From IMG/VR virus record IMGVR_UViG_3300034108_000503, positions 8,272-72,271 of that record: a stretch of DNA of 64,000 bases, one strand, 5' to 3'. The DNA is from a virus. This document shows positions 922 to 51,982 of the stretch, piece by piece. Made by a program: the position numbers and the translations under genes. The notes under the pieces were generated by a model. It worked only from the letters and a program-made list of their open reading frames with translations, did no database searches and was not told where the DNA came from. Each line of letters opens with the position of its first letter. Position 1 is the stretch's first letter.

Positions 922-3900
922 ATGGAATCGATTGATGGAACTGGTCTTCCTTCCCAACCGCAGACGCAGCCGCAGGCTCCAAAGAAGTGGAGCGAGATTG
1001 AACAGGAGAGCCTGATCTACTCGCTTCCGCCTGAGCAGCGGATGCCGATCTTCGACCAGTGGGTCAAGGACACCCAGAACTATCAGCTTCAGGCTGGAGG
1101 ATTCGACAATCCGGAGTCCTTTCAGAAGTTCAAACTCAAGGAACTTCAGACCCGTCGCCGCCTCTCTTCCGAGATCGGTGCCGATCCGACTCCCGAGGAA
1201 GTCAATGCTGACTACGACAACTACGTCAACATCATCAGCAGCGAGCAGCAGAGGCTTGCTGCGAAGGCACCGGATGAGAAGGCGTACAAGGATGTCATCG
1301 ACGGAAACCGTGGCGCTGCCTTCGTGGGTGGTCAGATTGTATTCAATCCAAAGGTCACCAAGGATCCTACCGCTTATCGTAAAGCACTTGCAGAATCGGA
1401 TGCTCCTGATGACATCAAGCTGATCTACGCCGGGAAGCGTGACGAGGAGGACAAGAAGTCTGTCGTCACAAGACGCAATGAACTTGCATCAAGGGTCATC
1501 ACTCCGAAGGTTGCCGACAAGGTTGTCTCTGCAATCCAAGAAGGGAACGAGATCCTCGGCTTTGATGTCGGCACTCCTCAGTCACCTGCCATCGTCAAGG
1601 ACAAGGCTGGAACATGGTCTGTGGTTGATCCTGATTATGTGAACTGGGATGAATCCATTGTCGGTGGAATTGCCACCAAGGTTCTCCCTGCTGCCAATGC
1701 CCAGTACAAACCGATGCCGGAACTCAACGAGTTCCAGAAGAAGTACGGACTGACGGACGAAGAGATCCAGACCGACTACCTTGAAGCGCTCAAGCGAAGC
1801 GCACCGACATCCATTTCCCGCTGGGTCACCAATGCTGACTCGCTGGAGGACTACGTCCCCGTTCTCAACTCCAAAGTCAGGGTTCTTGATCCTGACGTAA
1901 AGCCGAAGGTCTTCGTGCCGAATGCGGATCTTGCCTTCGACAAGGAGGCTTACGATGCCGTCGTGGACAAGGCGAAGGCTCCGGATGAAGCAAAGGCTCT
2001 CGCCAAGGAAACCAGAACACAGATCGCTGAATCCATTGCGGCTCCGACATTCGACCTTCTCCTCCGCAACCGAGACGACTTTGCCCCGTATGCCAAGGAC
2101 GCAAAGGATCCCCAGGCGAAGGTCGCTGCTGTGTCCAGGTACTACAAGGACAAGAAGGATCAGGCGTGGTACAATGACATCGGTGAGTTCTTCAGCCAGG
2201 GCATCGGCGGAATCGGGACCGGACTGACCAGACTGGTGAATCTTGCGAACGTGGTGCCTGCAATGTTTGGAGACGTGGAAGCTGCTGAACGTGCTGCCGC
2301 AGTCCAGAAAGCCGAAAACGAAAAGGCGCAGGCCGCTGAGATGGTTGGCAGCAGGATGGGTGCGCCAACTACCATCAAGCTGACCCGTGACGTTGCTGCC
2401 GTCCTTCCGGATCTCGCGGCTCAGATTGTGATCTCGATGGCTACCGGAGGTCTCGGTGCTTCCGCTGCTGCCGGATCTCTTGCAGCCAGGACCGGGGTTT
2501 CATACACCGCTGCCCGTGGAGCGATCAGTGCTGCCATGGCAAACGCCGAACGAGGTGCCGTCAGGGCTGCGGTTTCAAGGATCCCCAGCATCGCCGCTGG
2601 TTCCGTGGATGATCTTGCTGACGCAGCGATTGCTACGGCAAAGCAGATGTCGTCGAAGAATCCTCTCAAGGGAGGACTTGGTCTTCAGCAGGCAGTTTCT
2701 GCCGCCACTGCCGGGATGAGCAGCATGGGAGGAACATTCCCCGAGGTGTACAGCCAGCTTCGGAATGAAGGCATGGCTCCAGCAAAAGCGCTGGATGCAG
2801 CAAGGAATGCTGCCGCAATCTCCGGTGCCATCACCGGGTTGATCACATACGGATTCTCTGCCGCTGGTGCTGGTGGTGCCGAAGACATTGGCACGATGAG
2901 CCAGCGCAAGGCCGGGGACTTTACTGTTCGCGACTTGGTTGCTGCCGGACTTCCTGATGTACTCAGATCTGAATACGGAAAGCAGGCAGTCATCAAAACT
3001 GCGAGGGGAATCCTCGGAAAGGCTGGATCGGAAGGATTGGAAGAAGGCCTTGATCAGTTCATCGGCGGAATTTCCCAGTACCTCACTAACCCGTCAGCAG
3101 AAGCGCAGGACAAAAAGGTTTCGGACATCATCCAGGAGTCGCTCTACGCTGGCGCACTTGGATTCATTGTCGGTGGTGGTGCTGCTGTCGGTGGACAGAT
3201 CAGGCAGACTGCCGGGGGTCTTACTGCCGCTCAGATTGAAGCGGAGATGGCTGGACTCACTGGTGCGCCACCCGCGCCACCTGCACCTGCAACGCCGCCG
3301 CCACCAGTTGCTCCTGCTGCCGCACCTCCTGCTGCTGGTTCAACTCCACCTGCGCCTGCCGCTCCCGGTGCTGCTGCCGTTCCGCCAAGCCCAGCGCCAC
3401 CACCAGCAGGTGCCGCCACTGTTGTCTCGCCAACCGGAACGACGACGGTATCCACTGCCGCGCCAAGTACCGTTGTGTCGGCTCAACCTCCGGGTGCAAC
3501 AAGGCTTGCCACTCGTCTCGCGTCTCAGTTTGGAGTGGACATCACAACCGTCACTCCGTCCGGGGCAAACAACACCGTCACGCCGAATGACATCCGTAAT
3601 GCTGCTCGGCAAAAGCAATTGGCAGAGGCAGAACAGAATGGCGTTGCGCCTCCTGAAGAACTTCCGCTTCCTCCACCTCCACCGAATCCGCTGCTCAGTG
3701 AAGCTGTCGGCATGCAGATTCAGTACGAAGGCTACGAAGGCACGCTGATTGATGACGAAGGCAGGCCCGCCTTGCAGACACCGGATGGAACGGTCATTGA
3801 CATTCCGGCCACGTTTCTTGCTGACGAGGCAGTGAATGCCCTCGGCATTACAGTCACCGGAGATGCAGCGCAGGATAGAGCAGAAGTGCTTCGCATGTAC

Positions 3901-6900
3901 GGCGAAACGGAAGGCGAGGCATTGCAGATTATCTTTGGCGGCATCACGACGGACACTGATTCCGTTGTCGATATGGCTGAACTCGGCGTCTCACTGCTGC
4001 AACGCAAGGGACGCAAGACAATCAGGGTGCAGAACACACCAGAGTTCGCACGCATGGCGAGGGGAATCACGGACGAACAGATCCTCCTTGCCGAAGAGCA
4101 GATCACTCAGGCAATTGAAACCACTAGAACCCAGACGGGAATCCCAGATGACCTCAAACAGAAAATCACAGCCAAACTTGAGGGAGACCTCAACATCCTC
4201 TCCCTCTTCATCGAGTCCCGCGACTCTTGGCAGAACGGACTCGTTCCTCGCGACATTGGCGTACCTTCGGAAACAAGGCAAGCCACAGCCGCAAGCCAAG
4301 CCCCAGCCCAGCAGACAAACCCCGCCGCAGTAAACGCAGCGTCAGTTGCTGCTGCCGTATCACAAGTTCCCGGCGCATCAATCACTGGTGCCGCGCTCCA
4401 ACAGGCAGCGAATACTGCTCCTCCGGTTCCTGTTGAGGTACCTCCTGCTCCTGCTCAACAGCCAGTTGAAGCTGCTCCCGCTGCGACACCTGCCGCCCCG
4501 ACCGTGGTCGAAGAGCCTGCTGCGGAAGCGAAGGCAGTCACCCGCGATGCGACGAAGCCGGAACAGATGACGAAAGATGAACTTTCGGCATTCAGAAAAT
4601 CTGAGGCAATAAAAACAGCTAAAGATGATCTTTCAAAAGCAAAAGACGGAACAGATAATCCGTATGCGTTTGGATTCAAAAGCAAAGCGGCGCTAGTAAG
4701 GGCAAGAGAAGATGCTTTACAAAAAGCAACATCGGAAGATCAAGACCCTGATGTTTTCGGAACTGTCATTGAGGCGGCAAATCAAAAGCGCCCAATATTT
4801 GCCGGATTGATTGACTCTCTGAGTGATGTAGACCGGACAATTTCTCCCGGTCCAATGGGAGAACCAGGCGGTGTTGTGCGATCTGCAAGGAAGCAATTGA
4901 TCGACAGTATTGAAGAAAAAGGATACGTCAAAGAAGGTGACCTGTATGTTTTCAAAGGAGAAAGCGAAACCGCTTCCGTAAAAGCAACAGAAGAGCCTGC
5001 CGTGGAAGCTCCGGTTGAAGCGACCGTGGAAACCAAACCAACAGAAGCACCAGTCGCTCCGGTTGAAGCTGCTACTGAACCTGTAGTCGAGCCTGCCGCT
5101 CCGAAGGAAGAAGCCCCAGCCACTGCCCCGAAGGCAGAGGCACCAGTCGAAGAGCCGAAGGCGGCGGTTGATATTGAGTTCGTAGAGGGAGACGCAGCGG
5201 AAGACGCTGATATTGTCTTTATGGTTTACAGCGCAAATAACTATTACACCCTTTGGTTCAAGCAGAAATCCAAGGACAAGACAGCAAGACCAGTTTATGT
5301 AAAGAACCTACCATCAAACGAGAAGGATGCTTTCTCTGAAGCAAAGCAATACGCATCAAAAATTGCATCAACAGGCAAAATTCCGCAGGCTTTTGTCGGG
5401 AAAATTGATGTATACAAATTCAATACTGTCGGTCTCATCGACAAAGTTGTTGAAAGAGAAAAGCTCTCAACTCCAGTTTCACGGAATCTTGGTGATTCAG
5501 AAATCAGGTACGGCGAGTACGCTGGCAAAACAATCAATCAACTTTTGTCCGGCGAAGAAAAGGAATTCGATTACGTTTTTTCCAATCTGATCAAAACCAA
5601 CTTCTTTTCCAGCTACATTGCATCTCTGCCTGAGTTTGAGATCTTCAAGCAGAAACAAAAAGAGAAAGCCAAGCAAGTAGTCACAAGCGAAAGCAAGGCG
5701 GCTCTCAAAAAAGTTGGATTGAATGTATCAATCAACGAGGAAAGCGGGGAGATTCAGATCTCAGGCAAGACATTCGCATGGAGAGAAAAGCTCTCTTCCG
5801 TAAAAGGAAAATTCAACTATGAAGACAAATTCTACTCAGTCACCCCAGAAGGATACAGACAACTTGCAGAAGAGATTGGAGGAATTAAGGTTTCTGATGG
5901 CGGATACGAGCGAGGCATCCCGGCTTATGTCACAGATGAAAGATATCGAAGACTTCGCAGAGAACGAGAACAGGATCCTGACAGAAGCGGACTACCTTCC
6001 GCTCCTGGACAGTATGTCTCGGTAGGAACACAAGATCTTCTCCGCAAAGGAGAGGAGTCCGGAATGCCTTCGTTTGTTATTGAGGAACAGATTGAAGATG
6101 TTGCCTTGATCAAAAGGGCATACACCGAAGGCAAACCTTTGTTCCTTCTTTCAAGCGAGCCGGGTTCAGGAAAAACCTACGTTCTTGGTGCAGCGATCAG
6201 GGAATTGATTGCCGCTGGCGCAAAGAAGATCAATTACATTACTCTTAACGAAAACCTGATTGAGCAAATCAAAGCGGATCTTGCTGAGTATGGAATTCAG
6301 GATGTTTCGTTCTACACATACGACAGCATCAAAAAGAAAGATGTTGGCGAAAGTGATGTTTTGATTTTTGATGAAGGTCACGCAATCAAGAATATCGGGA
6401 AAGGAACCGGGAGGGCAAAGAAAGGCGAGAACTTGATTCGCAGATCAAAGTTCACATTGGTTTCTTCCGCTACGCCATTTGAGAACCCGCTTGAGGTGGA
6501 GTATCTTGATGCGGCAGGTGTCTTTGATGACAAGAACGAATTCCCGGAGGGGTTTGATGACTTCGTCTTGGCTTTTGGTGGATACGTTTTTTCAGTGACT
6601 GACTCAAGAGGAAACACGGTAAGTAAACTGGAGTTTGCAAGAAGCAAAGGATCAAACGAGGATCTCATGCAGGCCCGCGAGTTCTTCAGAAAGCGAGGAA
6701 TGCTTACTACAAGAAGAACCAAGCTCGACAGCAGCATGGTTGATGTTCAGCAAAAGAAAGTCCCTGCCGACAAATATTACGTTGATATTTTCAACGCCAT
6801 CAACAAAGCCAAGGAAGACAAACAACTTACCGTTTACGCGAGGCAGTGGTTCGTCAACTTCCAGAAACGACTTCTTGAAGCGTCAAAGATTGACTCTGCG

Positions 6901-9900
6901 ATAGGTGAGGCGAGGAACGCAATCGACGAAGGAAGATACCCAATCATTTTTGTAGAAACGAAACAAGCAAAGGATTTCGATATCGACAAACTCGTAAAAG
7001 ATGAGTTTGAGTACCAAAGGACAGTCGCAAGAGCGAAGATGATGGATGACTCCCCTCCTCCTCGTTCAGCATTTGATCTTCCTCCTGAAGGTGTTGTTGA
7101 TGTTTTTGAAGAGGCAGTAAAGTCCTTCAAGATCAAGAATATTTCAATTCCTTCAATCAACGACAAGATCATATCGGCTTTTGGGAAGGAAACTGTTGCG
7201 TTCTTTACTGGAGATTTCACGGACCTTCAGGCGAAGAAGAATCTTTCCGAGTGGAGGAAGGGAACCAAGAAGCTGCTCGTCGCCACAATGGCAAAGGGTG
7301 GAACTGGTCTCTCATTGCATGACAAATCCGGTGATCATCCAACAACGCAGATCAATGTAAATCTTCCATGGTCGGCAACTCAATTCACACAGGTGGCCCA
7401 AAGATCCGCTAGGTACGGATTGAGATCGAAAGCCAAAATGATGTGGCTTTTCACCGACGAGATCGATTTCGACAGGAAGCTCGCAAATCTTGTTGGTGGA
7501 AGAATTCAAAGCATGAGCGCTTTGGTTGGCGGAAAAGAAAGCAAGATCGGAGAGACTCTTGAAGAGTGGAATATTGCAGACACGACTGACTCTGAGCGCA
7601 AGGACGTTAAGCCGACAGAGAAGCCAGCAGAGACAGCAGATGGATCGCCGGATCCAAATGCCACCGATGATCTGAGTGTTTCGCGAAGCACTGGTCTTCC
7701 GTACACTCCCGGAGAAGCACGCAAGGCAGGTGTCACCCGAATCGCCAGCGACCTTGGGTTGGTCAACGGGAACCAGGAATCTGTCTTCAGCGCTCTGGAG
7801 AAGATCTCTAAGTCCGGCAACCGCAGGCACAGGAAGGTAGCCAAGGATCTGCTCAAGGTTCTGCAAGGCACTGATGTGACCGTCCAGATGATCTCAGTGG
7901 ATCCATCCAAGAACGGATGGTTCGACCCGGCAACCGGAACGGTCTACCTCAACCTCGATGGGCCGCATGAAACTGGCATCGTCGAGACGCTGCTGCATGA
8001 ACTGGTTCACGCCGGAACCGAGAGGGCAATCAGCAATCCGGTCACCCCGGCGCAGAAAGCATTGGTGGATTCGCTCCAGAAGCAGATGGATTCCGCAAGG
8101 AAGGCGGCAGCGGATCTGATCAAGTCCAAGCTAGGCAAGGACGTGGATCTGACCAACTGGCGAGGACTGGTCAATGCGGCGAGGATGCTCAATGACTACG
8201 ACTTCTTCGACGTGGTCTACGGTCTCTCCAGCCTGAGCGAGTTCGCAACCCATGCGACCACCAGCAAGGCGTTCCAGAAGTTCCTGAGCGGAGTCGGCAA
8301 GGATGGCAAACCGCTGGGTCTGTTTGATCGCTTTGTCCGTGTGATTGCCAAGTACTTCACCGGGCAAACAGACATTGCCACTGATGTCTACAACGACATC
8401 ATCAGCCTCATTGGATCTGCCGACAAGGGATCGGTGCGGATGCCGAACATCAACCGTGAGAAGTTTGGCGGGTTGGTTGGAAAGCCTGCGTCCGAATCCA
8501 GAGGTGTCACTCCTCAGATGGATGCGGAGTATATGTCCGCCGTTGAAGGCGGCGACACCAAGACCGCACAGAGATTGGTGGATCAGGCTGCGAAGGCGGC
8601 TGGGTATAATGGTGATCTTTGGCATGGAACAAAATCTGAAAAAATAGGTGAGCTTTCCTTTGATGAATCAAATGAAGGATTTCATATCGGAACCAAAAAG
8701 GCCGCCGCAGAAAGACTGAAGTACATAAATAAAACGCTTCCAGAAATGCGGCAGTCTAAGGATAACCTAATCAAAGTTTCAATAAAAGGAAACTACTTGA
8801 CTGTTCCTGATGTCGGATACGGATATCTTGTTGACTGGATTGGAGCCGCTCAGGATGCGTTGCCAGTTGAAGGCCAGGAGATTGATGATCCATTCGATGT
8901 TACGCAGGAGCAATTCACTGAGTGGCTCATGAAGAATGGGTACTCTGGGTTGAGATATGTAAACGAAATAGAAAATGCAGGAAGTACTAGTTATGCTGTA
9001 TTTGATTTTGGTAGCGTGAAATCAACTGAGCCGATCATTAAGGACGACGCTGGTAACGTCATCCCGCTCTCCCAGCGCTTCAATCCTCAGTCTCCAGATA
9101 TTCGCTTCTCCGAATCCAGAGGCATCATTGACCAGCAGCTTGCGCTCTACGCTCCGGACCTCAAGGTCTTCGTCGAGCCTGGGGTCAAAGATCCGATTGC
9201 GTACAATGGCATCGGCCTTGTGATCAACGAGGAAGCGGTCAGCGAGATGGACGAAGACGACGTGCGCCTCCAGACCCAGCGTGCCGCTCTTGCGTCGAGG
9301 TTTGCCGCTGACAACCCGCTGGCTGCGGATGTGATCCAGAAGCCTGACCTGCTGTTCCCTGCGCTCATGGGTGATTCTGTGCGTGCTGGAGTGGCGAGAT
9401 CGCTGATGGATGCCAGTCGCTTTGCTGCCGACAATGGGATGCAGCCTCTTGCGATGGATCTTGGGACCAAGGCTGATGCCTTTGGAGCCACCGGGATCAT
9501 GCTGTCCGAGGCGAGAGGAGTGCCACCTGATGGAGTCAGAAGGTTTGATCTTGTGGATGCTGTCCGCGCAGCAAAGGCTGGCGAAGCGTCCACTCCATTT
9601 GTTGCCCTGAACGAGGCGATCAACGCAAACACCGAACTCACGCGACGGATCAGGGCTGAGAGTGAGCGGAGGAAAGCACCATACGCCAGAGGCAAAGGAG
9701 CGATCCTCCAGCAGATCATCACAGCAGGTAATTCCGGGCGTCTTCCAAAAGAGGCAATCAAGCCAATCACCGACTTTGTGAACTCGGTATCGGAGAAGGC
9801 TCTGGAGGATACGAGAATCTCACTGTCCGTAAAGCCAAAGAGCAGCACATTCGATTTCACGGAGTCCCTTGTGACTTTGGCTCTGAACGGTCTCGGTTCT

Positions 9901-12900
9901 TCTCCGAATGAGATTGACCGGACTGCTGTTCATGAATTCTGGCATGGTCTCTCCCGCTTTATTCCCGATGAGGAAATCGAGAAGATGCGCGTTGATTACG
10001 TCAAGTTCGTCAAGAAATACATCGCCAAGAATCCGTGGTTCGTTCCGTTCATTGGAAGGACGCACTTGAATGAGGATCAGTACGACGATTTCTCCAGGAT
10101 GCTGTCCAAAGAGGAGATGGACTCAATCCCGTGGAAAGAATGGGAGACTCTTGATAACGGGAAGCGGGTGCGCGGAATCAAGTGGGACAAGGAGAACTAC
10201 CGTCTCTTCCGCCTTGATGAGTGGGTGGTTGAAACCATGGCGGATCTGGTGCGCCGAAAGCAGGAAAGACCAACGACTGTCCTTGGTAAGATGGCTCGCC
10301 TGATCCGGGACTTCATTGACACGCTGAAGCAGGCTCTCGGTGATCCGTACCTGCGTGCGCTGGATGCGATGACCATTCCGGACGAGGCGTTCAATGCCGT
10401 TATCGAAAGGGATGGTCCAATTGAAAACAATCCTCCCGTGATGTACGGAGGCGTAGCCGAAGGGATGAACAATCAGTTCGTCCTCGGAATGTACGCTGGC
10501 GAGAAGTCGCTGGAGAATATGCCAGAAGAACGCAGGGCGTTCATGCAGGATTCCCTGAATTCAGCAAGAGCAATGGCTGCGGCTGGCAAGACAAGCGAGG
10601 AGATCCGTGCTGTGACCGGATGGTTCCCCGGAAAGTACGACGGCAAGATGCGGTGGGAAGTGCCGGATAATGAAGCGGAACTTAGGCTTTCTGAATACAG
10701 ACAGAAAAGAAAGGACGGAAGCTCACAGGAGGATATTGTCCGTGAATTTTTTCAGGCAAAACAGCAATCCGCAATGGAGCTTGCATTAAAAAAAGCATAC
10801 AATCTTAAAGGCAAAGACTTGATTGATTTTAGCCGTAGGTTTGATTCTGAAAAGAAAAAAGAAAATCTCGGGGTTTATTCGTTTTATCTAAATGAGGAGA
10901 ATAGAAGCCGAGGAAGAATTCCTCTCAGCTATATTCTTAAGCATGATCAATTGTTTGATCTGTACCCAGAACTTAGGTTTATGCCAGTGTCGTTTAATGC
11001 AGACGACATGGAGGCAAGTCCATTTGCCATTGGCGCATTCAACAGTAGTTTTAATGGAATTTCACTAAATCCAATATATGCTTTTGAAAATGAACAGGAT
11101 GCTTTATCGACTGTTCTACATGAAATTCAGCACGCAATTCAAAAAACGGAGGATTTCGCAAAAGGAGCATCTCCGGATTCATATTTGTTTGCTGATGTTG
11201 CATATAAGGATTGGCTTCTCAGGGCAGAGCTTGTCCAGCTTTCAGATGAAATGAACAAGCCGCTATCTGAGGCTGTTGAAATGTATAAACCATTCCCTCA
11301 AGATTACGAATCATTGCAATCAGCACTCAAGGCTTATAATTCAGATAATGATTTCAAGGATTCCGTTTCAGTAAATATTAAATACTGGAAACCAAGGGGT
11401 TCTGTAAACATGTTTGATGCGTACACAAACACCGCAGGCGAAATCGAAGCCCGTGATGTTCAGGCAAGGCAAGCATTGACACCCGAGCAGCGTGCCGCTG
11501 TTGCACCATACAGCAGCGAGAACATCGCTCCGGAAGATGCGATTGTCAGCTACTCAACCGCCAGAGGCTACACCCCGGCACCCGGCACATATGTTGCGGT
11601 CCCATCCAGCGGATGGATGGCGGCGACCGGATGGATTGCGTCGAAGTTCAGATCCAGAGGCAACCTCACTCAGGCTGGGCTTGAGGTCACGATCATGAAC
11701 GAGCAGGAGAAGAAGGCGGCAGCAAACGCGGCACGCTTCCTTGGCAATAATCTCGGCAAGCAGATTGAGAAGGTCTTCGGAAGGACCGAGAAGGACACCA
11801 AGAACTTCCGGGTGTTCACGACTGATGCCAGCGGCAAGCCCTCGTTTACCAGACCGTATGCGTCTCGGGCCGAGGCCGATGCCTTTGCTGCGAAGATGGG
11901 GTACACCGACTTCATGGTAGCCACCCCGGAGGAACTGATGAACATCGCCCTCGGGAACAGCATGCCGTCGCTGACTCCGAAGCAGGAGGAGGAGCTTGAA
12001 GCTATTCGCGAGCGCGGGATTGCTGCCGTTCAGGCGAAGACCGACAAGCTCACCGAGCAGTACCTCCGCGATAACGCTGCCCTGATTGAGAAGATTCGCA
12101 AGTCCGGCGGAACTGCTGCGGAACTCGACAAGCTCAAGGACAATCGTGAGATCTTCCAGAAGGAGATGCTCAAGTACAACGATTCCCTGAAGGCTCTCTT
12201 TGAGGAAAAGTACAAGGAAGTGAACCGCAAGTTCATGCTGGAGAACAAGGAGAAGTTCCTTTCGCTTCAGGCGAACGCCAAGATGTTCCTGCCGGATTCC
12301 ATCCTCAATGAAATCGAAGAAGCCAGGGCGGCTATCGACGGCAGGTCCAGGGAGATTGCCGGGATCGACTACCTGATGAAGGACGGCATGATGCGGATCG
12401 TGTTCTCAGCACAGGAGGGAATCTACGTCACCCGTGCATACGAGGCGTTTGAGGCGAAGAATCGTGAGGACTACGTTAACTTCCTGAACGAAGCGTACCG
12501 CTCCACGGTCGAAGGCGAGATGGTTGGCGGTAAACCGCTGAAGTACCGCGAGGTTGCGCGTGAGCGGATCACTCCGCTGGTGAACGTCCTCACCGGGAAG
12601 ATCATTGAGAAGCGGGCAAAGGACATCATTGCGGAGCAGAATGCTGACATGGTCAGCGATCTCCGTGATGAGATGAGGATCATGGATGAGAAGTCCATGT
12701 ACAAGAAGGACAGGAAGGACAAGGAGATGGACATGTACTTGTACCTGAGCGACGAGTACATTCTGGTCAGGGCAAAGAATGAAGTGAAGCGCAGGCGGGC
12801 GCAGTACCGCAGGGAGTTCATCCGAGGGATTGCCAACTACCTCGTCAGTAATCCCGCCCTTCTCAGCCTTCCTGCTGGTGCAGGGAAGAAGGAGATCCGT

Positions 12901-15645
12901 GCTGCTGCCATGAAGATGGGGCGGGATGCCTACAATGACCCTGATTCGTTTGATAAACTGATCACCGACTCCGCAATCGACCGGATCAAGCTGCTGAAGT
13001 ACAAGCTGATGCCGCTGGGTGATGCGCTCATTCAGGCTCAGAATGAATACCAGATTGCCGAGAAACTCCGGAGGGCTGGCAAGCCGGACACATCTGGAAT
13101 CAAATGGCGCACGTCCATCGGGAACAATCAGAAGCAGAGCTTCATTGAAGCGCTCAACTCGGACTTCCAGAAGAACCTGGACTTCATCCTCGGTGCGCCA
13201 GTCAGCGGATCCGGCGGCAAGGGAGTAGCCGATAGCTGGCAGAAGCTGAACGATGAGATCCTGATGCATCGCGACAACATTCCGGCGTACATGCGGAAGT
13301 TTTGGGGAGAGACTGAGTCTCCGATTCAGCGGATCACCCAGACGATCACGAAGCAGGCATCGCTGATTGCCGACTCGGTGTTCCGCGAAAGGATCGCCAG
13401 CCTCGGACTGGAAGAGGGGTGGGCCGTGAAGAAGGAGGACTACGACAGTAACCCAAACAAGTACCCAGGCTACAAGCGAATCATCGAGGGCGACGAAGGC
13501 TACGAGGACAATCCTCTGGCTGACCTCTACGTTGACGGCAACATCTACAACTCGCTGGAGATCCGCAGGTCCGGCAATCAACCATCCAACGATGCATTCA
13601 AGTTCATCGGATACTGGGTTGGTGCTGCTCTCTGGAATGCGACATCCGGTTTGATGCGTGGTGCTGTCCGGAACCTTGCGTCCTTCCCGGCATGGGGAAT
13701 GAACTCTGGTCAGAACCTTGCCAACCCGATCACCATGGCGCGTGTGATGTCCAACTTCGGTATCGCATCCGGAGCAATCGCTGAACACCTTGCCACCGTG
13801 CCAAGAGTGAAGGGTGGAACCGAAGGCGAATTTGTCGGTTTGAGGTGGAGCAAGAACCTGATCGGCACTGCGCTTCAGGCATACTCATTCACTGGTCCTG
13901 GGTCGAAGATCTTCGGAGGAATCTCCGGTATCCTCGGATCAATCTCCAATGTGACTGGCAGGGCGGAAAAGGAATCAGACCGCAAGGCGTTCCAGGATCT
14001 GTACACCAGGGCAGTCAATGTCGGTGTTGCTGACAACAACATTGAACGGAACGACATGGCAAGACTCCTCGGGTACGAGGACGAACTCACCCGCAGACCA
14101 ATCACTGGAGGCAAACTTGCCCGCTTCCTGCCATCGTGGATGCGCCCTGATGACATGCAGGGTGCATTGGATTACCTCGTACAGACAGCCAAGTCCACGG
14201 CAGGGAACCGTACCGAGTACTACTCATCGATGGACTCGCTGACCAAGATCACGTTCTGGCTCAGTGAGATGGAGGAGCAGGCGAAGATCCACGCCAAGGA
14301 CAAGGCTCAGTTCAATGAGTGGCGCGGAGAGAACGGCATGTTCCAGAACCTTCCGAAGGAGCTTCAGATCAAGGCCGCGAACAACATCAATGACACCATC
14401 CAGTCTGACTCTCGGGTTCTGGAAGGCGTGAACCAGTTCCGTAAAGCCGGATGGGGTAAGATCCTCTCTCCGTTCCTTGCGTCGAAGACCGAATTCATCC
14501 GCACTGCCCAGAATTCCTACCGGATTGCGCTGGATGAAATGAAGAACGGTGTGAACAAGAAGGAGAAAGCCAGGGGCGCAAGGCGTCTGGTTGCTGCGCT
14601 GACTGGTCACATCGGATACTCTGCTGTCGCATCGTTCCTTGCGGTCACCGTCATGCGGATGGTTGGTGGCGGGGACGATGAGGAGAAGGAAGGCGTGACG
14701 CTCGACGGTTCGCAGATTGATTCGCTCCGGAAACTGCTGCCAGAGTGGGCGCAGAATAAGGTGCTGGCTGGACGAGCATACGCCAATGGCGAGATCGACT
14801 GGGCTGACGTTTCCTTCCAGCTTCCGTTTGGATGGATGAACGAAATCTTCATCTCCGGACAGAAGGCAATCGACAAGAGCAACGCGGAAGACATCCTCGC
14901 TGCCGAGGTCACGATGCAGATCGTGTCTGACTTCATCGGCAACTTTGCCTCCAGGCAGATTGCAGTTGAGGCTGCATCCAATGCTCTTTCTGGCTTCGAC
15001 CGGATCCGGAACAAGACGATCTGGGAAAAGGACGACAGTGTCTACGTCAAGATCGCTAAGGGGATCAAGTACTACTTGAATTCCGCAGGGTATCCCGGTG
15101 ACGTTCGTGATGCCATCAAGATGTACAAGGCTGCATACGGGATCGAGGAGAATGGCAGCAAGTACAAGATGGATGCAGTCCTCCTGTCCATGCTCACTGG
15201 TCAGAGCATCCGCACCCAGAAGATCGACGAGATGTACCTCTCTCAGATGCGGCAAGCCCAGGATGATCTGCGTATCGTGAACCGATCCCTCTACCAGTCG
15301 GCTCTCCGGGATGCCAACAACGTGGAGCCTGAAGATGTCGCAGCCGACACGAAACTCGCCATGACCCGCCACGCCGAAACCATGCGTGAACTCGGGCAGA
15401 TGTTCTCCTCGGCAACAAGCCTGCTGGAGACTGGCGGCATGGCTCCAATGGATGCCAGAAAGAAGATCCTTGCGATCATGCGAAGCGAGAAGGTCAAACT
15501 CAGCCAGCGTGATGAGCGGGCAATCGCCAACCAGTACATCCCGCCATGGCGAGGATCAGATGTCACCGAGAGGGAAATCCGCAGGCTCGACCGCAAGCAT
15601 AACGACGGTCGCTTTGAGGCTTACCTTGACGCGATCCGCAGGTAA
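922..15645 (+). CDS. Giant 4907-aa polyvalent virion/ejection protein (DarB-like architecture): PSBD-like domain, SF2 helicase, zincin peptidases, ART-like domain, LPD23
   Basis: Walker A SSEPGSGKT (~6151-6177), DEGH (~6370), SATP, ATMAKGGTGLSLHD and QRSARYG helicase motifs; HELVH (7996), HEFWH (9931), HEIQH (11119); DAEYMSAVEGGD...WHGT...VIPLSQRFNPQSPDIRFS ART-associated module; EEIRAVTGWFPGKYDGKMRWEVPD (LPD23-like); Gly/Ala-rich hydrophobic N-terminal helices. Confidence 0.85.
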   Translation: MESIDGTGLPSQPQTQPQAPKKWSEIEQESLIYSLPPEQRMPIFDQWVKDTQNYQLQAGGFDNPESFQKFKLKELQTRRRLSSEIGADPTPEEVNADYDNYVNIISSEQQRLAAKAPDEKAYKDVIDGNRGAAFVGGQIVFNPKVTKDPTAYRKALAESDAPDDIKLIYAGKRDEEDKKSVVTRRNELASRVITPKVADKVVSAIQEGNEILGFDVGTPQSPAIVKDKAGTWSVVDPDYVNWDESIVGGIATKVLPAANAQYKPMPELNEFQKKYGLTDEEIQTDYLEALKRSAPTSISRWVTNADSLEDYVPVLNSKVRVLDPDVKPKVFVPNADLAFDKEAYDAVVDKAKAPDEAKALAKETRTQIAESIAAPTFDLLLRNRDDFAPYAKDAKDPQAKVAAVSRYYKDKKDQAWYNDIGEFFSQGIGGIGTGLTRLVNLANVVPAMFGDVEAAERAAAVQKAENEKAQAAEMVGSRMGAPTTIKLTRDVAAVLPDLAAQIVISMATGGLGASAAAGSLAARTGVSYTAARGAISAAMANAERGAVRAAVSRIPSIAAGSVDDLADAAIATAKQMSSKNPLKGGLGLQQAVSAATAGMSSMGGTFPEVYSQLRNEGMAPAKALDAARNAAAISGAITGLITYGFSAAGAGGAEDIGTMSQRKAGDFTVRDLVAAGLPDVLRSEYGKQAVIKTARGILGKAGSEGLEEGLDQFIGGISQYLTNPSAEAQDKKVSDIIQESLYAGALGFIVGGGAAVGGQIRQTAGGLTAAQIEAEMAGLTGAPPAPPAPATPPPPVAPAAAPPAAGSTPPAPAAPGAAAVPPSPAPPPAGAATVVSPTGTTTVSTAAPSTVVSAQPPGATRLATRLASQFGVDITTVTPSGANNTVTPNDIRNAARQKQLAEAEQNGVAPPEELPLPPPPPNPLLSEAVGMQIQYEGYEGTLIDDEGRPALQTPDGTVIDIPATFLADEAVNALGITVTGDAAQDRAEVLRMYGETEGEALQIIFGGITTDTDSVVDMAELGVSLLQRKGRKTIRVQNTPEFARMARGITDEQILLAEEQITQAIETTRTQTGIPDDLKQKITAKLEGDLNILSLFIESRDSWQNGLVPRDIGVPSETRQATAASQAPAQQTNPAAVNAASVAAAVSQVPGASITGAALQQAANTAPPVPVEVPPAPAQQPVEAAPAATPAAPTVVEEPAAEAKAVTRDATKPEQMTKDELSAFRKSEAIKTAKDDLSKAKDGTDNPYAFGFKSKAALVRAREDALQKATSEDQDPDVFGTVIEAANQKRPIFAGLIDSLSDVDRTISPGPMGEPGGVVRSARKQLIDSIEEKGYVKEGDLYVFKGESETASVKATEEPAVEAPVEATVETKPTEAPVAPVEAATEPVVEPAAPKEEAPATAPKAEAPVEEPKAAVDIEFVEGDAAEDADIVFMVYSANNYYTLWFKQKSKDKTARPVYVKNLPSNEKDAFSEAKQYASKIASTGKIPQAFVGKIDVYKFNTVGLIDKVVEREKLSTPVSRNLGDSEIRYGEYAGKTINQLLSGEEKEFDYVFSNLIKTNFFSSYIASLPEFEIFKQKQKEKAKQVVTSESKAALKKVGLNVSINEESGEIQISGKTFAWREKLSSVKGKFNYEDKFYSVTPEGYRQLAEEIGGIKVSDGGYERGIPAYVTDERYRRLRREREQDPDRSGLPSAPGQYVSVGTQDLLRKGEESGMPSFVIEEQIEDVALIKRAYTEGKPLFLLSSEPGSGKTYVLGAAIRELIAAGAKKINYITLNENLIEQIKADLAEYGIQDVSFYTYDSIKKKDVGESDVLIFDEGHAIKNIGKGTGRAKKGENLIRRSKFTLVSSATPFENPLEVEYLDAAGVFDDKNEFPEGFDDFVLAFGGYVFSVTDSRGNTVSKLEFARSKGSNEDLMQAREFFRKRGMLTTRRTKLDSSMVDVQQKKVPADKYYVDIFNAINKAKEDKQLTVYARQWFVNFQKRLLEASKIDSAIGEARNAIDEGRYPIIFVETKQAKDFDIDKLVKDEFEYQRTVARAKMMDDSPPPRSAFDLPPEGVVDVFEEAVKSFKIKNISIPSINDKIISAFGKETVAFFTGDFTDLQAKKNLSEWRKGTKKLLVATMAKGGTGLSLHDKSGDHPTTQINVNLPWSATQFTQVAQRSARYGLRSKAKMMWLFTDEIDFDRKLANLVGGRIQSMSALVGGKESKIGETLEEWNIADTTDSERKDVKPTEKPAETADGSPDPNATDDLSVSRSTGLPYTPGEARKAGVTRIASDLGLVNGNQESVFSALEKISKSGNRRHRKVAKDLLKVLQGTDVTVQMISVDPSKNGWFDPATGTVYLNLDGPHETGIVETLLHELVHAGTERAISNPVTPAQKALVDSLQKQMDSARKAAADLIKSKLGKDVDLTNWRGLVNAARMLNDYDFFDVVYGLSSLSEFATHATTSKAFQKFLSGVGKDGKPLGLFDRFVRVIAKYFTGQTDIATDVYNDIISLIGSADKGSVRMPNINREKFGGLVGKPASESRGVTPQMDAEYMSAVEGGDTKTAQRLVDQAAKAAGYNGDLWHGTKSEKIGELSFDESNEGFHIGTKKAAAERLKYINKTLPEMRQSKDNLIKVSIKGNYLTVPDVGYGYLVDWIGAAQDALPVEGQEIDDPFDVTQEQFTEWLMKNGYSGLRYVNEIENAGSTSYAVFDFGSVKSTEPIIKDDAGNVIPLSQRFNPQSPDIRFSESRGIIDQQLALYAPDLKVFVEPGVKDPIAYNGIGLVINEEAVSEMDEDDVRLQTQRAALASRFAADNPLAADVIQKPDLLFPALMGDSVRAGVARSLMDASRFAADNGMQPLAMDLGTKADAFGATGIMLSEARGVPPDGVRRFDLVDAVRAAKAGEASTPFVALNEAINANTELTRRIRAESERRKAPYARGKGAILQQIITAGNSGRLPKEAIKPITDFVNSVSEKALEDTRISLSVKPKSSTFDFTESLVTLALNGLGSSPNEIDRTAVHEFWHGLSRFIPDEEIEKMRVDYVKFVKKYIAKNPWFVPFIGRTHLNEDQYDDFSRMLSKEEMDSIPWKEWETLDNGKRVRGIKWDKENYRLFRLDEWVVETMADLVRRKQERPTTVLGKMARLIRDFIDTLKQALGDPYLRALDAMTIPDEAFNAVIERDGPIENNPPVMYGGVAEGMNNQFVLGMYAGEKSLENMPEERRAFMQDSLNSARAMAAAGKTSEEIRAVTGWFPGKYDGKMRWEVPDNEAELRLSEYRQKRKDGSSQEDIVREFFQAKQQSAMELALKKAYNLKGKDLIDFSRRFDSEKKKENLGVYSFYLNEENRSRGRIPLSYILKHDQLFDLYPELRFMPVSFNADDMEASPFAIGAFNSSFNGISLNPIYAFENEQDALSTVLHEIQHAIQKTEDFAKGASPDSYLFADVAYKDWLLRAELVQLSDEMNKPLSEAVEMYKPFPQDYESLQSALKAYNSDNDFKDSVSVNIKYWKPRGSVNMFDAYTNTAGEIEARDVQARQALTPEQRAAVAPYSSENIAPEDAIVSYSTARGYTPAPGTYVAVPSSGWMAATGWIASKFRSRGNLTQAGLEVTIMNEQEKKAAANAARFLGNNLGKQIEKVFGRTEKDTKNFRVFTTDASGKPSFTRPYASRAEADAFAAKMGYTDFMVATPEELMNIALGNSMPSLTPKQEEELEAIRERGIAAVQAKTDKLTEQYLRDNAALIEKIRKSGGTAAELDKLKDNREIFQKEMLKYNDSLKALFEEKYKEVNRKFMLENKEKFLSLQANAKMFLPDSILNEIEEARAAIDGRSREIAGIDYLMKDGMMRIVFSAQEGIYVTRAYEAFEAKNREDYVNFLNEAYRSTVEGEMVGGKPLKYREVARERITPLVNVLTGKIIEKRAKDIIAEQNADMVSDLRDEMRIMDEKSMYKKDRKDKEMDMYLYLSDEYILVRAKNEVKRRRAQYRREFIRGIANYLVSNPALLSLPAGAGKKEIRAAAMKMGRDAYNDPDSFDKLITDSAIDRIKLLKYKLMPLGDALIQAQNEYQIAEKLRRAGKPDTSGIKWRTSIGNNQKQSFIEALNSDFQKNLDFILGAPVSGSGGKGVADSWQKLNDEILMHRDNIPAYMRKFWGETESPIQRITQTITKQASLIADSVFRERIASLGLEEGWAVKKEDYDSNPNKYPGYKRIIEGDEGYEDNPLADLYVDGNIYNSLEIRRSGNQPSNDAFKFIGYWVGAALWNATSGLMRGAVRNLASFPAWGMNSGQNLANPITMARVMSNFGIASGAIAEHLATVPRVKGGTEGEFVGLRWSKNLIGTALQAYSFTGPGSKIFGGISGILGSISNVTGRAEKESDRKAFQDLYTRAVNVGVADNNIERNDMARLLGYEDELTRRPITGGKLARFLPSWMRPDDMQGALDYLVQTAKSTAGNRTEYYSSMDSLTKITFWLSEMEEQAKIHAKDKAQFNEWRGENGMFQNLPKELQIKAANNINDTIQSDSRVLEGVNQFRKAGWGKILSPFLASKTEFIRTAQNSYRIALDEMKNGVNKKEKARGARRLVAALTGHIGYSAVASFLAVTVMRMVGGGDDEEKEGVTLDGSQIDSLRKLLPEWAQNKVLAGRAYANGEIDWADVSFQLPFGWMNEIFISGQKAIDKSNAEDILAAEVTMQIVSDFIGNFASRQIAVEAASNALSGFDRIRNKTIWEKDDSVYVKIAKGIKYYLNSAGYPGDVRDAIKMYKAAYGIEENGSKYKMDAVLLSMLTGQSIRTQKIDEMYLSQMRQAQDDLRIVNRSLYQSALRDANNVEPEDVAADTKLAMTRHAETMRELGQMFSSATSLLETGGMAPMDARKKILAIMRSEKVKLSQRDERAIANQYIPPWRGSDVTEREIRRLDRKHNDGRFEAYLDAIRR
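8491..9122 (+). repeat. Exact 14-bp direct repeat TCCGAATCCAGAGG (8491-8504, 9109-9122) flanking the ART-like domain
   Basis: Read directly; both copies encode SESRG in frame. Confidence 0.85.
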
Positions 15646-20866: not shown

Positions 20867-21703
20867 TCAGACCCCGCACATTCCTGTGCATTCGTTTCCG
20901 AACAGCGAAAGCTGCCCGCGGTCTTCCTCACTGGAGAAATCCACGGTTTCGATGGGCTGGCAGGATTTGTGAAGAAATGGAATGCCTCGCATTGTGGTTG
21001 TCTGCTGCTTGGCTGCTTGGAATTGCTTTTCAAACGCCACGGCTGCCGCAAACGCTTCTGGCTCTTCGGTTTTAAGCCTGCGCCATTCGGCGTCGGAATG
21101 GTACGGGCAAAACACGCACGACGACCGCGGTGGCTTTGGGTATCCATTCCGCTCCATCCATGCGATGCAATCTCCGCGACGCATGCCAAGGTCAACGAGC
21201 GGCCATTTTGATTCCGTCCACGGGTCGCGGGATGGCTTCATTCTGTGGACTTCATCCAGCGAGATCCCAATCCACTGAACAACGCCCACGGTTTTCTGAC
21301 CTCGTTTGATTCCGCCGAGTTCCCGAGCCTTTCGCAGAATTGGCGCAATCTTGAAGTCGTAGGTACAGGCGCGGGATGGCATCATGCCAATCTGGCCGCC
21401 CTGCCTGACGTGGCATGGGATGTTCCCGCCTGATATGATGTTGCCCGTTTTGCCAGTGTAAACCTTTGTCAGCTTATCGCTCAACCTGCCAGCCGTCACC
21501 CGGTGAATCGGGAACGGATGCGGGCTGCGCTGGATCTCTGCCTCTAGCCAGTCAAGCCAGCGGTAAACGGATGCAGGCTCATCTTGTGTGTCAGCGAAAA
21601 TTGCGCCATCCAAGTGTGGATATCCGGGAACTTCACCCCGTGCTGCCATGATAGCAAGAGTGCTGGATTGAACTCCAGCACCAAGAGAAAGAATATGTTT
21701 CAT
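20867..21703 (-). CDS. PAPS-reductase-like / adenine nucleotide alpha-hydrolase family protein
   Basis: LSLGAGVQSS PP-loop, IFADT, WIGISLDE, PPRSSCVFCPY. Confidence 0.75.
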   Translation of the reverse strand: MKHILSLGAGVQSSTLAIMAARGEVPGYPHLDGAIFADTQDEPASVYRWLDWLEAEIQRSPHPFPIHRVTAGRLSDKLTKVYTGKTGNIISGGNIPCHVRQGGQIGMMPSRACTYDFKIAPILRKARELGGIKRGQKTVGVVQWIGISLDEVHRMKPSRDPWTESKWPLVDLGMRRGDCIAWMERNGYPKPPRSSCVFCPYHSDAEWRRLKTEEPEAFAAAVAFEKQFQAAKQQTTTMRGIPFLHKSCQPIETVDFSSEEDRGQLSLFGNECTGMCGV

Positions 21704-21750
21704 TGAATTTATTTGCGTGATGACGTATACGCAACCCACGTTTGTCTGTT

Positions 21751-22050
21751 TTACGCCGCAACCTCTTTCTTCCTGGCAGGCTTGTGCTGGCAAGTCTCCG
21801 GAGCGAACTTCTTGCGGGCCATGCTGACCGTTGTCGGCTTGATACCAAGCTGGGCGGCAATGTCAATGGTCCGCAGGGACCAATCAACAGTACTCCAGAT
21901 GTGCTTCCGTGGAGGCTTCGGACCTCCGCTCTTTTTCCATCGCTGGTAGGCACCCATGTACTGCATGCCAGTTTCCTTGGCGGCAGTGGCGATGCTGGTC
22001 TTGGTCCAGTCGATTGTGGCGAAGTACTCGTCTCGTTCTTTCTTTGTCAT
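21751..22050 (-). CDS. Small protein with duplicated DW/HTH-like motif
   Basis: TIDWTKTSIATAAKETG and TVDWSLRTIDIAAQLGIKPTTVSMAR. Confidence 0.55.
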   Translation of the reverse strand: MTKKERDEYFATIDWTKTSIATAAKETGMQYMGAYQRWKKSGGPKPPRKHIWSTVDWSLRTIDIAAQLGIKPTTVSMARKKFAPETCQHKPARKKEVAA

Positions 22051-50131: not shown

Positions 50132-51982
50132 ATGGAAGAAATCATCATCACACGAATGCCTGGGGATTCACCGAATCCTCCGATTTTCGACTACGATGCG
50201 TGGGGGCAGGATAACGAAGGCAACATATATCATGAGCTTTACGGCAGATGGTGGTCCCGTGAAGTCAATGCCACCAGAGACGACATCGAACTCTGGGCAT
50301 TCAAGGAAGAACTCGGTCCGGAAGACGGAGGGCTTGGCAAGTACCAGCACCTGCGGGAATTCATCGACCTGACGTGGAACGCTGACGGCAAGACGATTGT
50401 CGAATGGAATCCATGGCTGGAGAAACTGCTGGAGGAAGCATGCTCCAATGAATTCCTCGCAGTCGGTGGGTGTTCGTCATCAGGCAAGTCCTGGGGTGGC
50501 GCACTCTACGGCATCGTGTCATTCCTCGCAGACCCGGAAGGCACGCTTGTGCTGGTGACATCCACATCAATCTCGGCAGCAAAGAAGCGGATCTGGAAAG
50601 GTGTCATTCAACTCTGGAATTCCCTCCCGGAGAAGTACAAGAAGCTGGGCCGGATCAAGCCGTCAGTGAACATGATTCACTACCAGCCACCGGATGGAAC
50701 GGTCGCATCTGACGCATCCTCAATCAACCTAGTGGCAGCAGAGCAGAAGCAGGAAGCATCTGCCGTGGCGAAACTGGTTGGTCTCAAGAACAGTACGGTC
50801 ATCCTGATTGCGGACGAATTGTGCGAACTCTCACCAGCCGTCATCGCAGCAACGGACAACCTGATCTCCAATCCTAGATTCCAGATGATTGCCATGAGCA
50901 ATCCAAAGGATCCCGAGGATCCATTCGGAATCATGTTCAAACCGAAGGCTGGCTGGAGTACCATCGACGAGACCTGCTACGAATGGGAGACTGACTACGG
51001 CAAGGCGATCAGGTTCGACGTTCTCCAGTCCCCGAACTACCTTGAGCAGGAGTGCATCTACAAGTACATGCTCACCTACGAGAAGATCGAGGCGAAGCGC
51101 AAGCAGCTTGGGGATAACTCCTCGGCGTTCTACCGATTCTACCGTGGATTCATTCCGCTTCAGGGATCCGAGAACAATCTCTACACCACGACGGACTTCA
51201 ATGCCTACATGGCGGACGACGTTGAGTGGAAGAATCCGCCGAAGAAGGTCGTCGGAATCGACTTGTCGTTCACATCATCCGGTGACCGCACAATCCTTGC
51301 CGTCTGCCTCTTCGGTGAAAGCAAGGAAGGCAAGAAGTGCCTGAAGTTTGAAAGGTACTATTCCATCAAGGAGAATGCCCAGGACAAGGTAAACCCGAGA
51401 ACTGAACAGATCGTCGATGAGGTGAAGCGCATCCTGGACCGGGAAGGCGTGACCTACGACAACGTCGCAATCGACAACTCCGGTGGCGGCATCTCGGCAG
51501 TGGACCGATTCACGCAGAAGCTCTCAAGGGATCTCCTGCGTGTGAACTTCGGCGGGAAGGCATCAGACAAACCAGTCTCGGCAAACGAGCGGATTCCGTC
51601 TTGGAAGAAGTACACCAACAGAGTCTCGGAACTCTGGGGGGTTGGCGTGGAATTCATGCGAGGCGGACAGTTCGCCGGATTCAACACATGCACGGAGCTT
51701 ATCGGTGAGATGAAAGCCAGACGCTATGAGATCGTCAAAGGAGGCGACGGTGAGCGGATTATGGTTGAGCCGAAACCGAAGATGAAGGCAAGAACTGGAA
51801 GATCGCCTGACATCAGTGATGCCGTCATGCTCGCCATTGAATTGTGCAGAGCCAAGCACCACTGGGTATCAGAGGAGCGCGGAGAACACGTTCTGTCTAA
51901 ATCAGATTACCTACAGAAAATAAGAAGGTTTGATATCAATACCCTTTCCGGTGGTGGTCATGACTGGCAACCATCCTTTTGA
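50132..51982 (+). CDS. terL: Terminase large subunit
   Basis: Walker A GCSSSGKS, Walker B ILIADE, MSNP, nuclease VGIDLS...GDRT, RSPDISDA. Confidence 0.85.
   Translation: MEEIIITRMPGDSPNPPIFDYDAWGQDNEGNIYHELYGRWWSREVNATRDDIELWAFKEELGPEDGGLGKYQHLREFIDLTWNADGKTIVEWNPWLEKLLEEACSNEFLAVGGCSSSGKSWGGALYGIVSFLADPEGTLVLVTSTSISAAKKRIWKGVIQLWNSLPEKYKKLGRIKPSVNMIHYQPPDGTVASDASSINLVAAEQKQEASAVAKLVGLKNSTVILIADELCELSPAVIAATDNLISNPRFQMIAMSNPKDPEDPFGIMFKPKAGWSTIDETCYEWETDYGKAIRFDVLQSPNYLEQECIYKYMLTYEKIEAKRKQLGDNSSAFYRFYRGFIPLQGSENNLYTTTDFNAYMADDVEWKNPPKKVVGIDLSFTSSGDRTILAVCLFGESKEGKKCLKFERYYSIKENAQDKVNPRTEQIVDEVKRILDREGVTYDNVAIDNSGGGISAVDRFTQKLSRDLLRVNFGGKASDKPVSANERIPSWKKYTNRVSELWGVGVEFMRGGQFAGFNTCTELIGEMKARRYEIVKGGDGERIMVEPKPKMKARTGRSPDISDAVMLAIELCRAKHHWVSEERGEHVLSKSDYLQKIRRFDINTLSGGGHDWQPSF

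Follow-up and report, generated by a model that had tools for sequence, protein, structure and literature searches.

Does a giant phage protein made of many unlike domains act as a single chain, or is it cut into separate enzymes at a short peptide that recurs between them? This question is raised by a 64,000-nucleotide stretch of viral DNA, here called the window, which comprises bases 8272-72271 of the 72,271-base IMG/VR record IMGVR_UViG_3300034108_000503, a genome rated 100% complete that belongs to an uncultured lake phage. One open reading frame (ORF) on its + strand, 922..15645, is open throughout and encodes P0001, a protein of 4,907 amino acids (aa). A previous reading, made from the sequence only, had described P0001 as a polyvalent protein whose effector domains are separated by S-x-x-R-G, and had taken this peptide for a self-processing site of an internal zincin peptidase, a recombination joint, or both. 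Comparison of P0001 with its relatives indicates that a narrower form, S-x-[SA]-R-G, is an enriched junction peptide specific to one clade of phage polyvalent proteins. The joints are cassette boundaries at which modules have been gained, lost, replaced and reordered, and they may, in our tentative view, also be cut by a zincin embedded in the same chain.

A recurrent peptide at the module joints of P0001

P0001 resolves into eight homology blocks with differing distributions among its relatives, as delimited by BLASTP against 119 giant homologues and against close relatives (Table 1). Several unrelated enzymatic or binding domains are carried on the one chain, namely a ResIII helicase domain, LPD23, an ART-like (ADP-ribosyltransferase-like) fold and three invariant HExxH motifs. 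Homologues of the modules M1 to M5 were found in 15, 83, 4, 9 and 97 of the 119 giants, respectively, and those of the C-terminal body, for which only the first 256 aa were counted, in 4. The peptide S-x-x-R-G occurs at exactly four places, aa 2524 (PA-SESRG), 2730 (RF-SESRG), 2862 (ML-SEARG) and 3545 (SY-STARG), which are those where the sequence-only reading had put it. The domains that it named between them were likewise recovered (HExxH at aa 2359, 3004 and 3400, LPD23 at aa 3191-3254 and, on modelling, the ART-like fold), although its list passed over a 132-aa module at aa 2730-2861.

When P0001 is taken alone the loose pattern S..RG is mildly enriched, with four sites against 1.27 expected (71 of 2,000 shuffled sequences reach four), while S.[SA]RG has four against 0.24 expected and none of 5,000 shuffles reaches that number. 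As the narrower pattern was picked post hoc, the real test lies in the relatives. The ORF of locus L004 (5,147 aa, of which P0002 is a truncated form) and the proteins P0003, P0004, P0005, P0171 and P0172 have three to five S.[SA]RG sites each, counts reached by 0-10 of 5,000 shuffles, and across all seven clade proteins three to five sites stand against 0.19-0.27 expected. Among 207 other giant homologues longer than 2,500 aa the pattern occurs 28 times against 36.4 expected, and none of them has three or more copies. P0172, whose shared modules have 28-47% identity to those of P0001, still has five sites (SLARG, SRARG, SKARG, SMARG and SRARG). Over 28 distinct contexts, which include a few non-junctions such as SVSRS and SVARG inside M3, the consensus reads S, a variable residue, A or S (R once), R and G, followed mostly by V, I or Y, with the Gly replaced by S at three joints before M3. 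One and the same peptide follows unrelated modules: M1, the ART-like module, M3, the LPD23-zincin module, an extra cassette of L004 and the last module of P0005, which is peculiar to that protein. A related site, [FL]-R-[SG]-R-G, is kept in all seven clade proteins 13-24 residues past the last joint, just ahead of the C-terminal body, and could be a further processing site. A weaker copy proposed by the sequence-only reading, LSVSRSTG at aa 2252 (SVSRS), had to be given up, as it reads SVSAY in L004 and SVNSS in P0005 and is absent from P0004, P0171 and P0172.

The junction sites appear to lie at domain edges, outside the parts predicted to fold with confidence and not within folded domains, a placement in which HMMER homology envelopes, the ends of stand-alone homologues and two AlphaFold2 models agree. 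A HMMER search with aa 2232-2900 matched 3,174 library proteins at E<=0.001, and in most of the 150 matches listed the best stretch covers only query positions 290-505, which run from just past the first SESRG to the Ser of the second. Among 50 shorter, stand-alone homologues of M5, P0167 ends exactly at the residue before STARG, P0139, P0147, P0156 and P0168 end within 2 aa, and three more end within 14 residues of the aromatic residue preceding STARG; P0246 terminates exactly at the aromatic residue of the ART tail. The model of aa 3150-3640 (41-row alignment, mean predicted local distance difference test score, pLDDT, of 70) is confident for M5 up to its tail and falls below a pLDDT of 50 for aa 3546-3592. 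That of aa 2232-2900 (25 rows, mean pLDDT 57) is confident for the ART-like domain at about aa 2529-2731, with stretches below 50 on both outer sides. The alignments of M1, M3 and M4 were shallow.

The module at aa 2524-2729 is predicted to have an ART-like fold. Its allele in the window has no match to any Pfam entry, PF18760 (ART-PolyVal) included, even at E<=1, and it aligns to the 83 giants counted above, many of which have a precomputed PF18760 match. The model resembles ADP-ribosyltransferase-fold chains with middling Z scores: 7ri3_A (Z 7.2, root-mean-square deviation (rmsd) 4.0, 133 residues aligned), 6fkg_B (Z 7.1) and 1xk9_A (Z 7.0, rmsd 3.8, 141 aligned). It also matches the cyanophage A4 pre-ejectosome chain 9k3a_B (Z 6.6, rmsd 4.5, 122 aligned), a weak hint that ART-like folds may occur in packaged ejection proteins; the accessible text of the A4 paper makes no mention of ADP-ribosylation. 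A search of solved-structure sequences with aa 2232-3559 gave nothing below E 0.39.

Table 1. Features of the giant gene and its product P0001 in the window
Feature	Residues (aa)	Position (nt)	Strand	Remarks
Giant gene for P0001, a phage polyvalent protein; closes the virion gene module		922..15645	+	
Conserved N-terminal domain	1-779	922..3258	+	47-98% identical in all six relatives compared
SF2 helicase region	ResIII 1722-1796; Helicase_C 2089-2166	6085..7419	+	Pfam
M1, zincin, candidate processing peptidase	2232-2523	7615..8490	+	HExxH at nt 7996-8010
Junction 1, SESRG (TCCGAATCCAGAGGT)	2524	8491..8505	+	
M2, ART-like domain (predicted)	2529-2729	8506..9108	+	Widely conserved tail PLSQRFNPQSPDIRF at end
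Junction 2, SESRG (TCCGAATCCAGAGGC)	2730	9109..9123	+	
M3, family unassigned	2735-2861	9124..9504	+	Homology block
Junction 3, SEARG	2862	9505..9519	+	
M4, second HExxH domain	2867-3186	9520..10479	+	HExxH at nt 9931-9945; no Pfam match
M5, LPD23 and zincin	3187-3544	10480..11553	+	HExxH at nt 11119-11133; conserved tail IAPEDAIVSY
Junction 4, STARG	3545	11554..11568	+	
Second Arg-Gly site, FRSRG	3576-3580	11647..11661	+	After a short variable spacer
Conserved C-terminal body		11662..15645	+	32-92% identical in six relatives

Mosaic relatives and the level of constraint

The expectation that modules come and go at boundaries marked by the motif was borne out by homologue alignments and by the mapping of breakpoints. 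Module order varies: P0004 has M4 ahead of M3 and M2, and P0005 and P0171 have M3 ahead of the ART module. When five clade proteins were compared all-against-all by BLASTP, 42 of the 167 internal alignment ends fell no more than 12 aa from a site, a zone that makes up 2.2-3.1% of the length; these ends are non-independent because three of the five proteins are close relatives. The window and L004 share 95-98% nucleotide identity through M1, M3, M4 and the C-terminal body. Between them the ART core has been swapped for a divergent allele; the breakpoints of this swap fall within the module, in the conserved first helix and tail. An internal part of M5 has also been replaced, again with breakpoints inside the module. 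L004 has, besides, an extra 247-aa module; on either side of it stands the SEARG joint, in two perfect 15-nt copies, and the window has this joint once (junction 3). This extra cassette (L004:9260-10000) gives weak methyltransferase-like Pfam matches, to TehB (E 0.012) and Methyltransf_23 (E 0.028), both below the cut-off.

Locus L009 differs from P0172 by another extra module, which is independent of the first and measures about 258 aa. In L009 it lies between NTDVVQ-SRARG and TMGEQY-SLARG-VTTEMD, P0172 reads NTDVVQ-SLARG-VTVEMD at the same place, and the flanks of this indel show only imperfect DNA repeats. Since the extra cassettes of L004 and L009 are both bounded by joints, 'module plus one joint' forms a unit of change. 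The idea of a recombination joint therefore holds for the cassette and its joint, but only partly for a mechanism at the DNA level, which is suggested by the 15-nt repeats of the L004 indel and is matched neither at the L009 indel nor in the ART core. That recombination took place exactly at the motif in every mosaic change is ruled out by the ART-core and M5 replacements, whose breakpoints are intramodular.

The codons of the joints were compared in the window, L004 and L009, the last being a relative of P0172. In the window the Arg codon is AGA in all four joints, where AGA makes up 19% of the Arg codons of the gene, and the SESRG copies on either side of the ART module agree at 14 of 15 nt. 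L004 encodes the joint Arg by AGA or CGA; L009 uses CGA or CGG, and its three joints read TCTCGGGCGCGAGGG, TCCCTGGCGCGGGGG and TCTCGGGCGCGGGGT. Position 2 of the joint varies freely. Because the peptide is kept while its codons change and GAGG is not kept, a constraint on the protein is favoured, and selection thus appears, from these comparisons, to hold the joint at the protein level. The copies within one genome are nevertheless near-identical, which shows that recombination also copies or homogenises joints.

Proposed cleavage by an embedded zincin and the alternatives

The HExxH motifs of M1, M4 and M5 are invariant in the aligned homologues (28/28, 10/10 and 147/147, respectively). The Pfam entries MPTase-PolyVal, DUF6782 and SprT-like all score below their cut-offs in P0001, the sub-threshold match of M1 being to DUF6782. 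Weak zincin fold matches were obtained to the VgrG2b effector (Z 5.5), PprI (Z 5.3) and SPRTN (Z 4.6), and Foldseek of the M5 model gave no match at E<=0.001, with ArdC at E 1.7. An M1-type zincin stands directly ahead of the first junction in all seven motif-bearing proteins, and in P0005, P0171 and P0172 it is the sole HExxH domain. As the putative peptidase domain common to all the site-bearing proteins, M1 fits what would be expected of an embedded protease and is the candidate peptidase.

We therefore consider S-x-[SA]-R-G to be a cassette boundary that is quite possibly also the cleavage site of the embedded M1 zincin, a reading that we hold with a confidence just short of even. P0001 starts with a conserved N-terminal domain, followed by variable linkers with the helicase and by an M1-type zincin, after which come the array of interchangeable effector modules and a conserved C-terminal body. 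In this clade the joints of the array read S-x-[SA]-R-G, mostly with V, I or Y as the next residue, the M4-M5 boundary being the exception. M1 would cut at its own C-terminus first and then at the remaining joints, and the modules would be freed as separate enzymes after packaging or host entry. The cut may fall after the joint Gly, in which case the following residue, mostly V, I or Y, would suit the S1' pocket of a zincin. Because every module carries the same joint, 'module plus one joint' could be inserted, lost or moved in frame, which would account for the mosaic relatives. We infer the cleavage, the identity of the peptidase, the timing and the delivery of the protein into the host.

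Several points weigh against cleavage by M1. No cleavage product, neo-terminus or enzyme assay is known for P0001 or any relative, and zincins of this kind are present in the N4 virion RNA polymerase, ArdC and TraC1, which are nonetheless described as packaged or transferred uncut in the accessible text of Iyer, Burroughs, Anand, de Souza and Aravind (2017; PMC5512222). M1-type zincins are also found in the motif-free giants P0173, P0183, P0206 and P0273, and the M4-M5 boundary has no S-x-x-R-G. The joint offers about five residues between the predicted ART tail and the first helix of the next module, which is tight for a protease acting on a folded chain. The models of M1 and M3 are of low confidence, and structure is therefore uninformative on both flanks of M3 and on the M1 side of junction 1, three of the eight junction flanks in all. 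Joint copies within a genome share their codons (14/15 and 15/15 nt), which fits a spread by recombination without any protease. Lastly, 17 of 20 family members that have both conserved tails carry different peptides after them, so that one code for the whole protein, though common, is not universal.

The main rival explanation is that the joint is passive: a favourable linker or cap, with Ser capping a helix or strand and Gly acting as a breaker, which was spread by recombination or gene conversion through a chain that stays uncut, and which persists since in-frame module exchange works only there. We regard this as a real possibility, though one that we would sooner doubt than accept. The perfect 15-nt repeats around the extra cassette of L004, with one copy in the window, speak for it, as do the near-identity of the ART-flanking SESRG copies, the use of the minority codon AGA in all four window joints and the uncut state of some zincin-bearing polyvalent proteins (Iyer et al. 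2017; PMC5512222). It also draws on the wider family, in which the tail of the ART module, P-L-S-x-R-F-(5-9 residues)-aromatic, was found at 305 sites in 316 proteins; the residue after it is Ser at 183 of 304 sites, regardless of what follows, which suggests a structural preference. A passive joint sits less well with the retention of S, [SA], R and G at five sites of P0172 and three of L009 despite other codons and diverged flanks, given that the ordinary linkers of the same protein (Pro/Ala-rich stretches and the residues flanking the joints) are not kept. Nor does it sit well with the L009/P0172 cassette indel and its imperfect DNA repeats, and an invariant Arg would be unusual for a mere spacer.

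Improbable in our estimate is a recognition signal that does not involve proteolysis, whereby the joint would be bound or modified, for example by a packaging or unfolding factor that threads the modules or by the protein's own ART-like module acting on the Arg. The protein-level constraint and the invariant Arg would agree with such a role, as would the second conserved R-G site before the C-terminal body and the ART-like module, which BLASTP against the window allele detects in six of the seven clade proteins. The seventh, P0005, gave no match to that allele but keeps five joints; moreover, no partner has been identified and no chaperone is annotated in the neighbourhood of the giant gene.

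Very improbable is a signal in the nucleotides, in which GAGG within AGA-GGN would act as an internal Shine-Dalgarno-like pause or restart at module boundaries: all nine joint copies of the window and L004 do read (A/C)GA-GG, but L009 has the joints CGG-GGG and CGG-GGT, which lack GAGG, and no ATG, GTG or TTG stands in frame within 45 nt of two of the four joints in the window, the other two being poorly spaced. Internal translation starts or pauses at the joints were rejected on these grounds. The idea that a short motif recurs by chance in so long a protein has a negligible standing and is refuted, since, for all the mildness of the enrichment of S..RG in P0001 alone and the fortuitous SEARG of a neighbouring virion gene, the enrichment is repeated across seven proteins and the BLASTP ends, non-independent as they are, gather near the sites.

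To return to cleavage, other lineages of giant homologues have repeated joints of their own. These came from an exact-letter over-representation scan of the first 60 proteins, which is noisy and from which the strongest cases were taken on: nine copies of (I/L)L(K/R)-AS-x-A-x-P in P0058 (e.g. ILK-ASGAVP), five of SP-DIRFQ-P in P0015, where it also follows the LPD23-zincin tail, six of L-x-AAPL in P0043, five matches to FSIG, two of them overlapping, in P0026, and three copies each of SNINY in P0059 and RFQKVD in P0051. In polyproteins encoded by eukaryotic RNA viruses, conserved junction sites are cut by embedded proteases. By analogy with these, lineage-specific repeated joints are the pattern that would be expected of co-evolution between site and protease. 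The likeness to the P0001 clade extends to the short boundary peptide, the embedded (here candidate) peptidase and the lineage-specific sites; the RNA-virus systems, however, use a Cys or Ser protease and a fixed replication set, whereas P0001 belongs to a dsDNA phage and would combine a zincin and a putative cleavage with accessory, interchangeable modules. It is conceivable, although we lean towards doubt, that giant phage polyvalent proteins in general are true polyproteins with a lineage-specific cleavage code co-evolving with the zincin that heads the effector array.

Genomic setting and relation to known systems

Towards the end of the record, PHROGs identifies a large terminase (50132-51982), then a tail spike (58160-60364) and then a virion structural protein (60368-63610). 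Further virion structural proteins occupy the first 8.3 kb of the record, all on the + strand and leading into the giant gene, downstream of which replication and nucleotide-metabolism genes lie on the opposite strand. As it comes after same-strand virion genes, the giant gene presumably occupies the slot where podovirus-like phages keep internal or ejection proteins, and by analogy P0001 would be delivered into the host with the DNA. A PAPS (phosphoadenosine phosphosulfate)-reductase-like gene is found at window positions 20867-21793 on the - strand (phrog_424, E 4e-47).

Neither PHROGs nor Pfam picked out a prohead protease among 39 proteins (P0001 and 38 larger ORFs of the record), which speaks for an embedded peptidase. 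A general virion cleavage motif was considered and rejected: S[ETQA][SA]RG occurs in two upstream virion-module ORFs, as SQSRG and SEARG, and the SEARG copy was judged to be due to chance. The Arg and Gly of SEARG, in a 401-aa ORF, are lost in 14 homologues (SEAKAAG, SEAQQAG, RDAKKVG), and SQSRG, in a 313-aa ORF, was compared only in an 87-94% identical relative, which is uninformative. At another locus, L007 (G001:C1:25685-26149), a copy of the 313-aa ORF is in two pieces, the second with two in-frame TGA codons. In a second IMG/VR relative (L003:588-15029) the giant gene is broken up into three ORFs (964, 2,292 and 1,671 aa) that overlap, which may reflect frameshifts or assembly errors; the junction motifs are intact there.

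The phage recurs in lake-water samples. Contigs from four lake-water metagenome runs (four studies, dated 2020 and 2024) were compared over nt 7600-11700, and all pieces are identical to the window; among them they bridge junctions 2, 3 and 4 unchanged (junction 2 in two of the four runs), which supports the assembly of the window. No joint variants or skipped cassettes were seen in them; because depth was low and contigs drop rare variants, this is uninformative on polymorphism. A megablast search of nt 7500-12000 against phages gave no match. When aa 2200-3700 and aa 3545-4907, which exclude the helicase part, were compared by tblastn with 50,697 phage records, no Bcep22-like or P1 record was listed, and tblastn of the C-terminal body against the phage collection gave no match.

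The assignment of P0001 to the polyvalent proteins, made in the sequence-only reading, is upheld by its composition and by its place at the end of the virion gene module. LPD23 (aa 3191-3254) scores E 1.4e-11 and 44.4 bits against a cut-off of 27, or 47.9 bits with the module alone, and ResIII passes with 28.3 bits (cut-off 22.5), while Helicase_C stays below with 17.1 bits (cut-off 23.5); the ART-like fold and the HExxH domains agree with them. The Pfam scan of P0001 found no methyltransferase and no LPD38 or LPD3. At window positions 3505-3594 (aa 862-891), after a long Pro/Ala linker, there is a match to the peripheral subunit-binding domain E3_binding of 18.8-21.6 bits, below the cut-off of 23.7. 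The N-terminal domain has a moderately hydrophobic stretch at aa 491-520 and the C-terminal body a hydrophobic one at aa 4557-4582.

Polyvalent proteins were defined by Iyer et al. (2017; PMC5512222), who suggested that MPTase zincins free the domains by autoproteolysis and who made the analogy with RNA-virus polyproteins explicit. P0001 shares with the proteins that they describe LPD23, the SF2 helicase, the ART-like module, HExxH domains in one chain and the virion context. The accessible text of that paper names no junction or cleavage motif ('linker' occurs in it 0 times and 'junction' twice, one passage concerning Holliday junctions), whereas the P0001 clade has a defined pentapeptide and one type of zincin at the head of the array. 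The literature searched, supplementary files excepted, likewise yielded no such motif for polyvalent proteins. Processing by embedded zincins has thus been proposed already, while a defined joint code with a candidate peptidase was not found in the print sources available to us.

The closest likeness in size and position is to gp69 of the Bcep22-like podovirus JC1, a DarB-like antirestriction protein of 4,515 aa that was detected by mass spectrometry in purified virions, with 51 unique peptides (PMC9144972). Both proteins take up about 20-22% of their genome, are encoded by the last virion-morphogenesis gene and have helicase and LPD domains, and both genomes have a PAPS reductase gene (gp65 in JC1; PMC9144972). 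In the accessible part of that report no junction motif or processing is described for gp69; P0001, for its part, lacks a detected methyltransferase and LPD38/LPD3. P0001 would not be called DarB-like by comparison with P1 DarB and Bcep22 gp75, as it has the helicase and no Pfam methyltransferase. The giant gp47 of phi24B has also been reported in virions, according to the part of the source available.

Head-protease-processed proteins are another point of comparison. SPN3US gp245, an internal or ejection protein of a large phage (PMC10052503), and P1 DdrB, an example given by Iyer et al. (2017; PMC5512222), are packed into the head and, as far as the accessible texts go, cut at short motifs before or after packaging. 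The window record differs in that no prohead protease was recognised in it and that the neighbouring virion protein tested has not kept the joint motif. Polymorphic toxins, cited in PMC5512222, exchange effectors by recombination as the P0001 clade does, but in the available account they do so with C-terminal cassettes and silent ones downstream, whereas P0001 has serial cassettes in one ORF with the same peptide between them.

Polyvalent proteins are very common, as the 3,174 library matches to aa 2232-2900 attest, and are thought to bring the first anti-defence enzymes into the host. The joints bear on a question that has stood since 2017, whether such proteins work as one chain or are cut up, and a defined joint with a candidate peptidase makes the idea of cutting directly testable with small constructs. 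They also give exact module boundaries, which should help to work out what orphan modules do and to follow the mosaic evolution of these genes. If the joints are indeed cleaved, new anti-host effectors could be plugged into the array and then freed as separate enzymes in the infected cell, and these phages would have a dsDNA counterpart of the polyprotein processing of RNA viruses.

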